Shown in pieces: positions 15,028 through 56,476 of a stretch of DNA of 64,000 nt (position 1 is its first letter; every line of letters begins with the position of its first letter). This DNA is from Vicinamibacterales bacterium. GTDB lineage: Bacteria; Acidobacteriota; Vicinamibacteria; Vicinamibacterales; UBA8438. The stretch lies in the NCBI GenBank assembly GCA_965223015.1, contig CBDCVL010000002.1, positions 387,899 through 451,898 on the forward strand, given 5' to 3'. Below the pieces are notes generated by a model. That model did not search any database. It was not told where the DNA came from and saw nothing but the letters and a program-made list of their open reading frames with translations. The position numbers and the translations under genes were made by a program.

Positions 15028-15094
15028 TCGGCGCAATGGTAGCAGGAATGATCGCAACCTTGCGGTTCTGAGACACCAACTCGGTTTTTCACAT

Positions 15095-15194
15095 GCGTGT
15101 CGCGAGGACGCGCACAACGCGCCCCGCCGGAGCGGCGCGGGGCAGTGGGCCCCCGCGAGCTACGGCGTGGGGTTTTGGGGCGCTAGCCCCATCT
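15095..15194 (-). repeat. GC-rich hairpin repeat, family R2, copy C (reverse orientation; weaker extension to 15072)
   Basis: About 85-90% identical by eye to 32780-32881 and 47718-47815. Starts 10 nt after the TAG stop of the upstream minus-strand gene. Confidence 0.85.
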
Positions 15195-21153: not shown

Positions 21154-22662
21154 ATGGATAGCGAGACCACCTTCGAAGAGTTTGCCGCCCTCGCCACGCA
21201 GGGCACCTTCGTGCCGGTGTGCAAAGAGGTCATGGCAGACATGCTCACTCCGGTGTCGGCCTTCCTCAAGGTTGCGGAGCAGGCGGAGCACGCCTTCTTG
21301 TTCGAGAGTGTGGAGGGGGGTGAGCGACTGGCCCGGTATTCGTTTCTCGGAAAGGACCCGTTCATGGTTCTCCGGGCCCGGAACGGGCAATGCATCGTCG
21401 ATCAGGCAGGCCAGCGGCAGGAGCGAGATGACCCGTTTTTCGATGTCTTGCGTGAGGTGATGGGACGGTTCACGTCTCCAGCGGTGGACGGACTGCCGCG
21501 TTTCACCGGTGGCGCGGTTGGGTTTCTCGGATACGAGTCAGCGCTCTGGTTCGAGCCGTCGCTCCAAGGATGCTGGAAGCGTTTCGACAAGACGACGCCT
21601 GACGACACAGACGACGCCGGCTTCATGCTGTTCGATACGGTCCTCGCGTTCGATCATCTGAAACATCGGATCTTGGTTATCGCGAATGCGGAGGTCGGCG
21701 AAGGCGTCGACCTTCGTGCGCAGTACGAGCTGGCGCAGGCCAAGATCAGATTCCTCGAGCGAGAGCTCGGCCGTGGTCTGTCGGACAGTTCCCAGGAGGA
21801 AGGCGGGAGTCTCGAATGGCGGTCGAACACCGCGCGCGCGACCTATGAGGAGTCGGTCGCAAAGGCACAGCGATACATCAAGGCTGGGGACATCTATCAG
21901 GTGGTCTTGTCTCAGCGATTCGAGACGGATGTCTCCGTGGACCCGTTCACGGTGTATCGGGCGCTTCGGTATGTGAACCCGTCGCCCTATATGTATTTCA
22001 TGCGACTAGGCGGGGTGTCGATCGTGGGGTCGTCCCCGGAGATGCTGGTGCGGGTCGAGGGGGACCGGGCCGAGACCCACCCGATCGCCGGAACTCGTCC
22101 CCGCGGGGAGAACGAGGTTCGGGACGAACAGCTGGCTGAGGAGCTCCGGGAGAACGAGAAAGAACGGGCCGAGCATGTCATGCTGGTCGACCTCGGGCGG
22201 AACGACCTCGGAAGGGTCTGCCAATACGGAACGGTGCGGGTGCCGCAGTATATGGGGCTCGAACGGTACTCGCATGTCATGCATCTCGTGTCGCGGGTCG
22301 TGGGGCGACTCGACGCTGAGCATGACCGCCTAGACGCGCTGGCAGCTTGCTTCCCCGCGGGGACCGTCTCGGGTGCGCCGAAGATCCGGGCGATGGAGAT
22401 CATCGCGGAGCTCGAGCCGACGACCCGCGGCATCTATTCCGGTGCGGTTGGGTATCTCGACTTCGCCGGGCATCTTGACTGCTGCATCACCATTCGCACG
22501 ATCGTGATGCGCGACGGCAAGGCGTACGTCCAGGCCGGGGCCGGGATCGTGGCCGACTCCGATCCCGCCGCCGAGTACCAGGAGACGCGCGACAAGGCCT
22601 CGGCGCTGATCCGGGCGCTTGAGATGGCGCAGAGCGGGCGAGGTCCTCGTGGTGTTGTCTAG
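21154..22662 (+). CDS. trpE: anthranilate synthase component I
   Basis: 502-aa ORF. GGAVGFLGYE, GTVSGAPKIRAMEII, GIYSGAVGYLDF. Confidence 0.95.
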   Translation: MDSETTFEEFAALATQGTFVPVCKEVMADMLTPVSAFLKVAEQAEHAFLFESVEGGERLARYSFLGKDPFMVLRARNGQCIVDQAGQRQERDDPFFDVLREVMGRFTSPAVDGLPRFTGGAVGFLGYESALWFEPSLQGCWKRFDKTTPDDTDDAGFMLFDTVLAFDHLKHRILVIANAEVGEGVDLRAQYELAQAKIRFLERELGRGLSDSSQEEGGSLEWRSNTARATYEESVAKAQRYIKAGDIYQVVLSQRFETDVSVDPFTVYRALRYVNPSPYMYFMRLGGVSIVGSSPEMLVRVEGDRAETHPIAGTRPRGENEVRDEQLAEELRENEKERAEHVMLVDLGRNDLGRVCQYGTVRVPQYMGLERYSHVMHLVSRVVGRLDAEHDRLDALAACFPAGTVSGAPKIRAMEIIAELEPTTRGIYSGAVGYLDFAGHLDCCITIRTIVMRDGKAYVQAGAGIVADSDPAAEYQETRDKASALIRALEMAQSGRGPRGVV

Positions 22663-22822
22663 TGTCCCGAGCATGAAACACCTAGCCATTCGGCCGGCGG
22701 TGCATCCGGTCTGGCGGCGTTGCGAATCGCTCGAATATTCCCGATATTCTCGCTCTTCACGCCTGGCCAGCCCGGCGCATCATCGCCCTCGGTGGCAAGG
22801 TGTTTCATACTCGGGACACTAG
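22659..22822 (+). repeat. 164-bp foldback (MITE-like) repeat, family R1, copy 1
   Basis: CTAG...CTAG termini, 25-nt terminal inverted arms (24/25 complementary), and a conserved core GGCGTTGCGAATCGCTCGAATATTCCCGATATTCTCGCTCTTC. The first CTAG contains the trpE TAG stop. Confidence 0.85.
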
Positions 22823-47717: not shown

Positions 47718-47815
47718 AGATGGGGCAGCGCCCCAAACCCCTCGCCGTCGCTCGCGGGGGCCCGTTGCCCCGCGCCGCTCCGGCGGGGCGCGCTGTGCGC
47801 GCCCTCGCGACACGC
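47718..47815 (+). repeat. GC-rich hairpin repeat, family R2, copy B
   Basis: Starts 10 nt after the aminotransferase TAG stop. Aligns with copies A and C over ~98 nt. Confidence 0.85.
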
Positions 47816-47846
47816 AAGTGAATAACGCGCCAGTGTGCCGAGTTTG

Positions 47847-49256
47847 TCATTTCTGATCGCCATCGGTCGGAAAGATCTTTCCAGGGTTGAGGATCCCGTT
47901 CGGATCGAATGCTTGTTTGACACGGCGCATCAACTCAATCGTGTCTTGGGAGAGCTCGAGTCCTAGGAATGGCGCCTTCGAGAACCCGATGCCGTGCTCA
48001 CCGCTGATCGACCCCTCCAGGGCAACGACTCCTTCGAAGAGCTCGCGCTCAGCCTGCCGAGCCCGCTCCATCGCGTAGCCGTCCTCCGGATCGACCAGAA
48101 TGTTGACATGTATGTTGCCGTCTCCCACGTGTCCAAAACTTGGCATCGGTAGTTGGTGGGCGTCCCTGAGCCGTGCGATGAGATCGAACAGCTGGGGAAT
48201 TCGTCCTTTGGGAACAACGACATCGTGGTTGATCTTGCGCGGCGCAAGGGCACGGAGCGCGAGCGAAAGGTCACGGCGATCCTTCCAGAGGCGGTCACGC
48301 TCGTCTTCGGTCCGCGCCTCGTTGACGACGGAAGCCATGTTGGAGCAGACACGGTCGACGCGATGTGCCTCTGCAGCCACCGCTTCCGGCATACCATCCA
48401 GCTCGATGAGAAGCAGCGCCCCGGCACCCTCCGAAGGCGGAGGGTCTCCGCGATACTGGGCAATGGCGGCCAGGCAGTCGGCATCGATGAGCTCGAGCGC
48501 GGCGGGCACGACTCCGTCGGCGATCACCGCTTCGACCGCGTGGGCTGCGTGGTCCAGCGTTTCGAACATCGCACGGAGGGAGGTGCGGGCGGTGGGTCGC
48601 GGGATGAGTCGGAGAATGATCTCTGTCACGATCGCCAGCGTGCCCTCCGAACCGACCAGAAGCTGTGTGACGTCATAGCCCACGACGTTCTTAACCGACT
48701 TGCCGCCGGTTCGGACGATCTGACCGGTCGGCAGGACTGCCTCGAGGCCCAAGACGTACCGCTTCGTTGTCCCGTACTTGAACGCCCGCGGTCCACCCGC
48801 ACACTCGGCCACATTGCCCCCGATGACTGACTCGTGGAGGCTTGCCGGATCAGGGGGGTAGAAGAGTCCGACGTTCTCCACCGCCTGCTGAAGGGTCGCC
48901 GTGACGACGTTGGGCTCCACGACTGCCAGCAGGTTCGACTCGTCAATCTCGAGAATGCGATTCAGCCGTTCCAGGGACATCACGACTCCTCCAGCAGTCG
49001 GGACGGCACCGCCGCTGTACCCAGTGCCGGCGCCGCGCGGCGTCAGCGGGACGCCAGCGCGGTCGCAAGTTCTGGCGACTGCCGCAACCTCTGCGGTCGA
49101 GCCGGGGACGACGACGAGGTCAGCTGGGTGGCCACGCTGAAGCGCGTCGACGCCGTACGCGGTCCGCGATGCCAGGTCCGTACGGACCCACGCAGAGCCC
49201 ACGAGGGTCCTCATCTCGTCGGCGAATCGGTCTGGCAGGCTGAGGCTAGAGGCCAT
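47847..49256 (-). CDS. FAD-linked oxidase (GlcD-like)
   Basis: Track ORF 47847..49397, start moved to ATG 49256. PCMH FAD-binding N-terminal domain (VVPGSTAEVAAVARTC..PRGAGTGYSGG). Confidence 0.8.
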   Translation of the reverse strand: MASSLSLPDRFADEMRTLVGSAWVRTDLASRTAYGVDALQRGHPADLVVVPGSTAEVAAVARTCDRAGVPLTPRGAGTGYSGGAVPTAGGVVMSLERLNRILEIDESNLLAVVEPNVVTATLQQAVENVGLFYPPDPASLHESVIGGNVAECAGGPRAFKYGTTKRYVLGLEAVLPTGQIVRTGGKSVKNVVGYDVTQLLVGSEGTLAIVTEIILRLIPRPTARTSLRAMFETLDHAAHAVEAVIADGVVPAALELIDADCLAAIAQYRGDPPPSEGAGALLLIELDGMPEAVAAEAHRVDRVCSNMASVVNEARTEDERDRLWKDRRDLSLALRALAPRKINHDVVVPKGRIPQLFDLIARLRDAHQLPMPSFGHVGDGNIHVNILVDPEDGYAMERARQAERELFEGVVALEGSISGEHGIGFSKAPFLGLELSQDTIELMRRVKQAFDPNGILNPGKIFPTDGDQK

Positions 49257-50361
49257 CGAGCTCGGTAGCGGCGCCAGGCTGCTGACTGGCGTCTCGCTGT
49301 TGCGAATCCATCGGGTCCCAGCGACCCGGAACTTTAGCCCCACACGACCCACAGTGGCCAGCCGCGGTGAGACGGTAGGCGCCAATGTCGTATCCACGCC
49401 GCTCGATCACCGGCACCTCGCACGTGGGGCAATGCGTGTGCTCGAGCTGACCGACGTCGCCGGGCAGATTGCCGGCATAGACGAACCGGAGTCCCTGTGC
49501 GCGCCCGATCTGCGCGGCCCGAGTCAACATGTTCGCTGTGGTGTCATGGCGGTCCGTCATCCGGTACGTCGCGTAGAACGCGGTCACGTGCCATGGGATA
49601 TCCGGAGACACGCTCGCAATGAACGACGTCATCAGTCGCAGCTCGTCATCGGAATCGTTGAAGCCTGGGATGAGAAGTGTGACGATCTCGACCCAGAGAC
49701 CAAGCATGTATGCACGTCGGATGGTGTCAAGCACTGGCTCGAGCCGCCCGCCGAGTTGGCGATAGTGTCGGTCGTCAAAGCTCTTCAGGTCCACCTTGTA
49801 CAGGTCGGTCCACGGTCGGAGGTACTCGAGCACCCGAGGCGTCGCATTTCCGTTGGACACGAAGCCAGTCGCAAGCCCGACCCGACGCGCCTCCTTGAAG
49901 ATCGCCACCGCCCACTCGGTCGTGATCAGCGGTTCGTTGTACGTGCTCACGACGGTACGCGCGCCCGAGCGCAGGGCGTCCTTCACCATACGGTTTGGGG
50001 TCGTCTGCTGAGGAACGGCTCCGGCCGCCGGGTCGCGAAGAGTCTGGGAGGTGACCCAGTTCTGGCAGTAACTGCAATGGAGATCACAGCCAAGCATTCC
50101 AAAGCTGTAGGCTAGCGAACCCGGATAGGCGTGGAAGAAGGGTTTCTTCTCGATCGGGTCACACTGGACACTCCCGACGTACCCCCACGGGACCTGCAGG
50201 TGCCCGTTCCGGTTGAACCGAACATGGCACACACCTTTCGCGCCAACCGGAATCCGGCACAGGTGTCCACAGGCATAGCATTGGATCCGGCCGCCACCGA
50301 TCGGCTCCCAAAGCTCGCCTTCCCGGGTCCGTGTTTCGAGCGTGGCACGCAAACTCGACAT
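49246..50361 (-). CDS. AmmeMemoRadiSam-system-type radical SAM enzyme
   Basis: Track ORF 49246..50736 runs through a repeat. The real start is ATG 50361 (SD GGCGAGGA). N-terminal Cys-rich CYACGHLC..GVCHVR, CDLHCSYCQNW (CxxxCxxC). Confidence 0.8.
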   Translation of the reverse strand: MSSLRATLETRTREGELWEPIGGGRIQCYACGHLCRIPVGAKGVCHVRFNRNGHLQVPWGYVGSVQCDPIEKKPFFHAYPGSLAYSFGMLGCDLHCSYCQNWVTSQTLRDPAAGAVPQQTTPNRMVKDALRSGARTVVSTYNEPLITTEWAVAIFKEARRVGLATGFVSNGNATPRVLEYLRPWTDLYKVDLKSFDDRHYRQLGGRLEPVLDTIRRAYMLGLWVEIVTLLIPGFNDSDDELRLMTSFIASVSPDIPWHVTAFYATYRMTDRHDTTANMLTRAAQIGRAQGLRFVYAGNLPGDVGQLEHTHCPTCEVPVIERRGYDIGAYRLTAAGHCGSCGAKVPGRWDPMDSQQRDASQQPGAATELDGL

Positions 50362-50375
50362 ATCCTCGCCTGTTT

Positions 50376-50539
50376 CTAGTGTAGTGAGTGCAACAGATCT
50401 GCACACCGAGGCTGGCGCTGCGCCCGGATGGCAAGGCGCGAAGAGCGAGAATATTGGGCATATTCGAGCGATGAGCAACGCCACCAGGCGGGATACAGCG
50501 CCGGCCGAATGTATGGATCTGTTGCACTCACCACACCAG
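50376..50539 (-). repeat. 164-bp foldback (MITE-like) repeat, family R1, copy 3 (reverse orientation, divergent arms)
   Basis: Exactly 164 bp. The core is ~80% identical to copies 1 and 2. The arms differ from copy 1 at 12/25 positions yet are 22/24 self-complementary. Confidence 0.8.
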
Positions 50540-50592
50540 TGTGAAACCGTGCAGGAGAGAAGGCAAGGGCCCCAGGCGCTATACTTGCTGCT

Positions 50593-50961
50593 GTGAAACG
50601 CGTAGCCGTCGTCGGGGCGTCGTCGAATCCCCAAAAGTTCGGCAATCAGGCCGTGCGCGCCCTCAATCGCCGAGGCTACGAAGTCATCCCGGTTAACCGA
50701 CACGAGACACAGATCGAGGGCCTCACGACCTATCATTCGGTCCTCGATATCCCTGGTGAGGTCGATATGGTCACGATTTACGTGCCACCTGCCGAGGCGC
50801 TCGACGTGATCTGTCAGATTGCGGAAAAGAAGATCCCCGAAGTCTGGCTCAATCCCGGGGCCGACGCACCTGAAGTCATCGACCGGGCCCGGGAGCTGGG
50901 CCTAGAACCAATCGTCGCCTGCAGCCTCATGGCAATAGGCGCCGCGGCTCAGGGCGGTTGA
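50593..50961 (+). CDS. CoA-binding domain protein (YccU-like)
   Basis: 122-aa ORF. VAVVGASSNPQKFGN. GTG start. Confidence 0.75.
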   Translation: MKRVAVVGASSNPQKFGNQAVRALNRRGYEVIPVNRHETQIEGLTTYHSVLDIPGEVDMVTIYVPPAEALDVICQIAEKKIPEVWLNPGADAPEVIDRARELGLEPIVACSLMAIGAAAQGG

Positions 50962-56312: not shown

Positions 56313-56476
56313 CTAGTGTCCCGAGTACGAAGTACCTAGCCATTCGGCCGGCGCTGCATCCCGCCTGTCGGCGTTGCGAATCGCTCGAATATTCCCGATA
56401 TTCTCGCTCTTCGAGCCTGGCCAGTCGGGCGCATCGCCATCCTCGATGACAAGGTATTTCATACTCGGAACACTAG
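56313..56476 (+). repeat. 164-bp foldback (MITE-like) repeat, family R1, copy 2
   Basis: Same length and CTAG termini as copy 1. Arms 22/25 complementary (3 transitions). The last CTAG contains the hspR TAG stop (minus strand). Confidence 0.85.

Follow-up and report, generated by a model that had tools for sequence, protein, structure and literature searches.

A CTAG-targeting family of foldback elements with a conserved core and divergent, self-complementary arms

Results

Position and anatomy of the third foldback copy

The locus described here lies in a window (the whole stretch of 64,000 nucleotides that was analysed) whose encoded proteins have their nearest named homologues in Acidobacteria and Vicinamibacterales, at 68-71% identity. 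The gene of a radical-SAM protein of 371 aa (49246-50361, minus strand) has its true start at ATG 50361, in agreement with 371-aa orthologues, and has upstream of it, after 14 nt, a 164-bp stretch (50376-50539) and then the divergent gene of a CoA-binding protein (50593-50961, plus strand). The 164-bp stretch is made up of a 156-bp foldback element of arm type B, copy 3 (50380-50535, minus strand; covariance-model match 124.7 bits), and a 4-bp flank on each side. The length, the reverse orientation and the position next to the radical-SAM start that had been given in the preliminary description of this DNA were all recovered. The 496-aa ORF called at 49246-50736 had there been suspected of artificial extension and is indeed an artefact of reading through copy 3, because the orthologues are 371 aa long with a matching start at 50361. 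By its predicted fold, copy 3 puts a hairpin of about −87 to −95 kcal/mol 14 nt before the start codon of the radical-SAM gene, in its 5′ leader. The GTG start of the CoA-binding gene is located 8 nt after a TATACT hexamer (50570-50595), so this gene may be leaderless. In relatives the entire divergent spacer between the two genes measures only 32-76 nt.

The strand with GGCGTTGC in its left half is the minus strand of the window and defines the orientation of copy 3. The left outer arm (TGTGGTGAGTGCAACAGATCCA; 50514-50535, minus strand) pairs with the right outer arm (reverse complement TGTAGTGAGTGCAACAGATCTG; 50380-50401, minus strand), and the two arms enclose a conserved inner part (50402-50513, minus strand) that is itself an imperfect palindrome. 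GGCGTTGC begins at element position 54, and the apex GAATAT-N5-ATATTC is found within 50443-50471. By an end-anchored count, the outer 22 positions contained 19 Watson-Crick pairs, one G·T and two A·C oppositions; the figure of 22 paired positions out of 24 that had been given before is obtained if G·T is counted. The inner part was 80-84% identical to arm types A and C, with 80% to copy 1 and 84% to copy 2, close to the 80% estimated earlier. The outer 22-nt arms were only 50-55% identical to those of the same two copies, and the left arm differed from that of copy 1 at 12 of 24 positions, about half, as first noted. When the arms of copies 1 and 3 were compared, both sides had changed with pairing kept at 8 of 22 positions (9 of 24), so that the roughly ten paired double changes first reported were about right; one side had changed at 4 of the 22 and 10 were unchanged. 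At window position 50495 (element position 41) copy 3 carries a T (TGTATCC), a private substitution in a conserved internal loop; the C (TGCATCC) is present at the copy 3 locus of four other assemblies (L025, L026, L027 and L044) and in all other family members.

Other copies and repeats in the window

Searches with a core pattern and with profiles detected three foldback copies in total in the window. Copy 1 (22663-22818, plus strand) is located between trpE and trpG, and copy 2 (56317-56472, plus strand) between dnaJ (start 56302, minus strand) and an hspR-like gene. Both are of arm type A, their full 164-bp stretches (22659-22822 and 56313-56476) are in the opposite orientation to copy 3, and both lie inside operons (trpE-trpG and hspR-dnaJ-clpB). 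Copy 2 was also found in relatives L028 and L044. Besides the HspR-DnaJ-ClpB operon, the window encodes RNase J, and its DNA is probably not gammaproteobacterial. Each of the three copies was predicted to fold into one long hairpin, at −94.7, −75.8 and −95.2 kcal/mol, with z scores of −9.8, −7.5 and −10.2 relative to dinucleotide shuffles, none of which (0 of 200) was as stable.

No transposase domain was found when 20 window ORFs were scanned against Pfam, the remainder of the window being covered by called genes of syntenic relatives. The element, with no more than three copies in the window, is accordingly non-autonomous. There were no further matches to the arms in the window, and about 420 kb of sampled DNA contained no longer element bounded by these ends. 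An IS630-type (DDE_3) transposase in L040 (L040:19673-20360), considered as a partner, was rejected: its end is unlike the arms, and the region is without a foldback copy. The gene is inserted near a ferrochelatase gene in a relative at 74% CoA-binding protein identity.

At gathering score, Rfam 15 found two tRNAs only in the window, and nothing relevant around copy 3 at E values up to 10. A scan for sigma-70 promoters and intrinsic terminators around copy 3 likewise gave nothing, and a promoter read by eye as TTGCGA-17-GATATT was discarded, its −10-like hexamer being lost in arm types D and E. A second intergenic repeat family was present at 15084-15179 (plus strand) and 47731-47826 (minus strand), two units of approximately 100 nt in inverted orientation that are 91% identical, GC-rich and furnished with internal hairpins (GCGCCCCGCCGGAGCGGCGCGGGGC; GGGGCGCTAGCCCC). 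It had no Rfam match at gathering score.

Insertion, target-site duplication and loss

Orthologous regions of relatives were retrieved by way of homologues of the CoA-binding protein, TrpG and ClpB. In L029 and L034, and also in L035 (87-92% nucleotide identity), one tetranucleotide only was present at each of the three window sites. For copy 3, the empty site of L029 reads ...CCTGTTT CTAG TGTGAAACC with a single CTAG, in place of the CTAG at 50376-50379 and its second copy at 50536-50539, decayed to CCAG, that flank the element in the window. For copy 1, flanked by CTAG at 22659-22662 and 22819-22822, the empty sites of L034 and L035 read GTTGC CTAG CGGGGA. For copy 2, flanked by CTAG at 56313-56316 and 56473-56476, the empty sites carry TTAG (L029) or CTAC (L031), the former, in an 87-92% relative, within GTCG-TTAG-AGCCCGAG. 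Each of the three window copies has therefore inserted with a duplication of 4 bp.

Elsewhere in the family, flanks other than CTAG occurred as direct repeats, namely TTAG/TTAG (L006), ATAG/ATAG (L005 and L015) and CTGG/CTGG (L007); copies with CTAG/CTAG flanks alone are also compatible with a right-hand CTAG borne by the element. A 2-bp TA duplication, as in MITEs derived from IS630/Tc1-mariner elements, was ruled out by the TTAG/TTAG and ATAG/ATAG flanks.

CTAG is the rarest of the 24 tetramers that are permutations of ACGT in the window, with 54 observed against 217 expected, and 7 of these 54 belong to foldback elements. The duplicated CTAG holds the TAG stop codon of trpE (22659-22662), of the hspR-like gene on the minus strand (56473-56476) and of lexA in L029 (L029:502-505), and insertion therefore regenerates the stop codon.

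Loss of copy 3 was traced in L028, which is 98% identical. At the site orthologous to window 50370-50545 it carries the footprint CTA-CA-CCAG (L028:9936-9948), five bases longer than the empty CTAG of L029. The decayed CCAG is shared with the window, so copy 3 was once present there and was then imprecisely lost. Such a footprint is rare direct evidence for the imprecise loss of a bacterial MITE. It could equally have originated from removal of the long palindrome by the host, followed by end joining. The strain L044 (99.87% identical) carries copies 2 and 3, the latter differing by one base.

An elevated mutation rate inside the element was rejected on two comparisons: copy 2 and its L028 counterpart differ at 6 of 156 nt against a background of 2.3%, and copy 3 and its L044 counterpart at one position against a background of 0.13%.

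Relatives carry foldback copies at further sites, and among those of the 87-92% relative were two long variants and a right-half remnant. The longer type-A variant (225-228 nt; L034:18064-18291 and L029:18127-18352) has an insertion of about 70 nt after GGCGGCG, and its presence at two loci of one genome implies that the enlarged form also moved. The right-half remnant is located beside lexA (L029:1133-1190). In another decayed copy (L019:5846-5990), the right half had been swapped for unrelated sequence with a terminator-like hairpin and a CTAG at its end. In L016 (L016:1899-2098), a full type-D element is directly adjoined by a 30-bp hairpin that consists of arms only (CAGCCTGTGGCGCAAGTCCCCCACAGGCTG) and has CTAG on either side, the middle CTAG being common to both; this arrangement looks like a tandem insertion into the duplication site or a deletion derivative.

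Distribution and arm types of the family

Beyond the window, about 20 distinct copies were found in relatives, in two Gammaproteobacteria MAGs and in metagenomes of sediment and soil. The core pattern matched the two MAGs, Ca. Rariloculus and a Pseudomonadales bacterium, and approximately 14 sediment and soil metagenome contigs, after 6 of the 20 metagenome matches had been discarded as chance matches to the short apex pattern. Profile searches of all retrieved DNA added diverged family members. Viral contigs scanned with the core pattern gave 0 matches, blastn of the copies gave none among plasmids, and neither the core sequence nor similar elements turned up in the full-text literature searched.

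The foldback unit is 156-159 bp long and gene-free. At least five arm types were distinguished by the beginning of the left arm: type A (TGTCCCGAG) in copies 1 and 2 and in relatives L028, L029 and L034; type B (TGTGGTGAG) at the copy 3 locus only, in the window and in L025, L026, L027 and L044; type C (CAGCCCGTGG) in the Gammaproteobacteria MAGs and sediments; type D (TCCCCTGGA) in L016; and type E (TGTCCTGTCCC) in L029. Arm identity between the types was 14-55%, close to random, whereas the inner 112 nt or so were 63-84% identical, a conservation that extends across distant bacteria. A single genome can carry two or more arm types on the same core, as do the window (A and B) and L029 (A and E). 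The possibility had been raised that the arms would fall into two clonal subfamilies; at least five arm types were found instead, with copy 3 as a distinct one. The inner part of copy 3 was 82-85% identical to type-C copies from sediment and 80-84% to the type-A copies of its own genome, the nearest being a type-C copy at 85%. With a core as close to type C as to type A, copy 3 represents a separate lineage, type B, and its approximately nine double changes relative to copy 1 are thus a lineage difference and not substitutions in place.

The distances within the unit were constant. GGCGTTGC starts at position 54-55 in all five arm types, and a block TCGCGCCTTGCC ends 50-52 nt before the 3′ end in every one. 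The subterminal blocks of the family are CATTCGrCCGGCG ... CCGGTCTCGGTG. The tips read TGT...ACA in types A, B and E and CAG...CTG in type C, with TCC..GGA also among the termini. They are not wholly free, since arm positions 4-7 keep a weak CCYG-like motif. Position 7 was a G in all but one of 19 copies. A CTAG stands at element positions 20-23 in arm types A and D (window 22682-22685 and 56336-56339; L016). It lies where the variable arm meets the conserved core and has a CAAG or CCAG as its counterpart on the other arm. This internal CTAG may be what remains of a duplication made by a nested insertion.

Pairing and covariation of the arms

The arms pair in nearly every copy in spite of their divergence. 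Between 16 and 21 of the outer 22 positions were paired in every copy but one, a long copy of L029 with 14 of 22, in which the left boundary is imperfectly set. Resting copies had 1-6 arm mismatches. A covariance model was built from type C with a single-hairpin structure, and 19 top-strand copies of types A-D were aligned to it under a strict threshold, as a palindromic element otherwise mixes both strands. This alignment and end-anchored counting were used instead of RNAalifold on a MAFFT alignment, which missed the outer stem because MAFFT put a 2-nt gap near the 3′ end.

In the model alignment, 89.1% of the cells were paired, compared to 75.9% in column shuffles and 33-48% in controls whose partners were slid by 1-3 columns. 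Of the 63 pairs, 37 had changed on both sides, against 21.4±2.5 in shuffles (0 of 500 reached the observed value) and 11-13 in the slid controls, and the covariation score was 0.351 against 0.05-0.075 for slid partners. All 18 pairs of the outer helix had changed on both sides, with 93% of cells paired. These pair figures lean in favour of the structure, because the alignment was fitted to it and the sequences are related. A sister-pair test was also made on eight pairs, picked greedily by similarity of the inner part and only roughly independent, and gave 34 same-position changes on both arms against 23.7±2.0 expected (0 of 20000 simulations). A lack of excess covariation, which the preliminary description had named as a refuting result, was not observed: covariation was far above both the shuffled and the slid controls. 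The strongest covariation signal comes from the deep splits between subfamilies.

Independent compensatory pairs, the other expectation of a selected stem, were found as single-position paired changes inside type C, at position 4 in L016a, at position 13 between L012 and L016a, at positions 2-3 in L002 and at position 20 in L001a. Further inside the element, the apex stem GAATAT/ATATTC was rewritten to CATAC/GTATG in type D and to CAGAT/ATCTG in type E. In the closest sister pairs (L007/L012 and Wc2/L034) the arm changes were one-sided only, and compensation is therefore slow and not instantaneous.

In 16 of 17 copies the more stable fold was that of the strand opposite to the one that defines the orientation here, by a mean of 7.6 kcal/mol with RNA parameters and 4.7 kcal/mol with DNA parameters; this bias was not relied on, because it mostly reflects the shared core. 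Arm mismatches on the top strand comprised about 7 G·T and about 20 A·C.

Discussion

On balance we lean towards reading copy 3 as a member of a previously undescribed family of MITEs, in which the conserved core is recognised and the arms form a stem of fixed length that needs only to pair. The element is filed as a MITE because it has the defining features, a known partner apart. In a MITE it is normally the ends that are conserved and defining while the interior is free, and the family is new among MITEs because this pattern of conservation is inverted. Its members insert at CTAG, duplicate 4 bp, can be lost and are mobilised in trans, and the whole-length hairpin has been kept at a fixed size in the long term. 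End-to-end pairing and stem length have survived at least five complete replacements of the arms, which suggests that the shape of the ends and not their sequence matters for the spread of the element.

The family may also be explained by ordinary co-evolution of terminal inverted repeats, where every arm type would be bound by a transposase of its own, the two ends would have to match one protein and so change together, and the hairpin would be a mere by-product. This is why any insertion sequence has inverted repeats at its ends, the tips are shared between types (TGT...ACA in A, B and E) or within one (CAG...CTG in C), the G at position 7 is nearly invariant (18 of 19 copies), and the 4-bp duplication and the footprint fit a DDE enzyme. 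We nevertheless hold this account to be unlikely. Conservation is lowest in the arms and highest in the interior, in reverse of known MITEs, so that plain conservation of terminal repeats fails to predict the pattern, as had been argued from the three window copies. A shared protein does not demand the single-position paired changes inside one arm type, pairing and covariation run on through the inner part to the apex, at least two arm types coexist with the same core in one genome, and no transposase with such ends was present in the approximately 420 kb of DNA sampled.

Copying from arm to arm would keep the stem paired without selection for pairing: in the element folded during transposition or repair, stem mismatches would be corrected from one arm, by hairpin-templated repair or intramolecular gene conversion. 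Stem selection, such repair and distinct subfamilies had all been proposed for copy 3; the subfamilies are found, and the data fit selection and arm-to-arm repair alike. Many of the double changes are clean and include transversions from G-C to C-G without a wobble intermediate, L012 and L016a differ by 2 double and 0 single changes, and the arms of types B and C possibly show, by eye, a mirrored indel relation. A blanket correction, however, would erase the mismatches, bulges and G·U-type pairs that the inner part keeps in all types (e.g. 60/162 and 63/159), and it would have removed the one-sided changes that stand uncorrected in the closest pairs as well as the 1-6 arm mismatches of resting copies. 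On these grounds we doubt that arm-to-arm copying accounts for the family.

Quite improbable is a composite origin, by which a conserved, CTAG-targeting core (about 110 nt) landed in the CTAG at the centre of various short palindromes, whose ends then became the arms. Three observations would agree with it: the mirrored CTAG at positions 20-23 of types A and D in spite of a four-fold depletion of CTAG, the 30-bp arms-only hairpin between CTAGs in L016 (L016:1903-1932), and arms that are unrelated between types. But types B, C and E are without the internal CTAG, and in all five types the conserved blocks stand equally far from the ends to within 1-2 nt, a regularity not expected of random capture. 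The DNA searched contained no core-only copy, the 30-bp element of L016 is asymmetric (20+10 nt) like a deletion derivative, and the single-position paired changes are left unexplained. That the element is foremost a structured RNA with a host function (an mRNA stabiliser, a processing site or a small RNA), its mobility being secondary and its covariation a mark of RNA folding, is very improbable. Copies 1 and 2 lie within operons and would be transcribed, the folding is very stable and one strand is better in 16 of 17 copies. Yet the orientation to genes is inconsistent (copy 1 sense, copy 2 antisense in element terms, copy 3 with a divergent gene on each side), Rfam gave no match even at E=10, neither a promoter nor a terminator consensus was detected, the top-strand arm mismatches are without an excess of G·U, and the host can do without any of the copies, as close relatives have empty sites.

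If the reading of a recognised core between freely drifting, paired arms is followed, the evolution of the element may be depicted as follows. A trans-acting enzyme would read the conserved inner part by its sequence and would need the element folded back, either as a single-stranded DNA hairpin or as an extruded cruciform. The arms would then form the fixed-length stem that places the points of cleavage at the flanking CTAG. They would drift fast, because only their pairing and length would matter, and copies that had regained arm complementarity would keep spreading, which would give rise to the compensatory pattern. The structure-dependent step is purely what we infer from these patterns. 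A 4-bp duplication with an imprecise footprint is typical of DDE cut-and-paste enzymes acting on double-stranded ends and counts against a folded strand as substrate, and single-strand hairpin transposases (IS200/IS605 and RAYT) are not known to make a duplication. Rather speculatively, a single kind of enzyme common to distant bacterial groups might read the core together with the geometry of the folded stem, ignore the sequence of the ends, measure about 24 bp of paired stem, whatever its sequence, in order to cut at the flanking CTAG, and duplicate the target, the arms being at liberty to be rewritten.

If the proposed role of the arms holds, the ends would be recognised by shape, a new way for a transposase or a structure-specific nuclease to define ends, and possibly a route to a programmable insertion tool. 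The family has consequences for its hosts as well. Insertion on CTAG, often overlapping TAG stop codons, lands exactly at gene ends (trpE, the hspR-like gene and lexA), and it puts very stable hairpins into operons and 5′ leaders. The element misleads ORF callers, of which the 496-aa radical-SAM ORF is an example. Strains that are 98-99% identical differ by its gain, its loss and the footprints left behind, which makes it a useful strain marker.

Relation to known systems

A 4-bp target duplication of the YTAR/CTAG type, the hallmark of the IS5 group (bacterial relatives of PIF/Harbinger-Tourist), is present in the foldback family. IS5-family ends start with G, GA or GG. The foldback ends TGT, CAG and TCC do not match these, and no IS5-type transposase was seen.

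The ERIC/IRU and Correia elements of enterobacteria and Neisseria are 100-160 bp long, reside between genes or within operons, form hairpins as RNA or DNA and have a short duplication containing TA. The foldback family resembles both in being palindromic over its whole length and in its comparable size and positions. It differs from Correia elements, which have conserved 26-bp terminal repeats and a TA duplication, by its 4-bp duplication and hypervariable termini. As to ERIC, blastn of the copies gave no match in 5,426 E. coli genomes.

The PATEs of the IS200/IS605 family and the attC sites of integrons are mobile DNA read in folded, single-stranded form; in them structure is conserved over sequence and one strand is the substrate, a mechanism of the kind proposed above. 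Neither, however, is known to make a target duplication. The PATEs insert 3′ of a fixed tetranucleotide and have small subterminal hairpins, whereas the foldback elements have variant but matching flanks and a hairpin of whole length. The attC sites carry R''/R' core sites (RYYYAAC/GTTRRRY) and flank gene cassettes. The foldback family has neither, and its copies sit between housekeeping genes and not at cassette ends.

The closest analogue in behaviour is the REPIN. Both are short, non-coding and intergenic and form a long hairpin. In REPINs there is a region whose sides stay paired through compensatory changes, and excision is asymmetric and leaves few bases (PMC3116915); the L028 site likewise retains a few bases. 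REPINs, which are paired REP sequences, are without a target duplication and have a RAYT (TnpA-REP) partner that mobilises them; the Pfam scan of the window ORFs revealed no RAYT/Y1 transposase. In REPINs it is the ends that are conserved, as REP 16-mers with a GTAG-type motif, and the middle that varies, whereas the foldback family, with its 4-bp duplication of CTAG, has the reverse arrangement.
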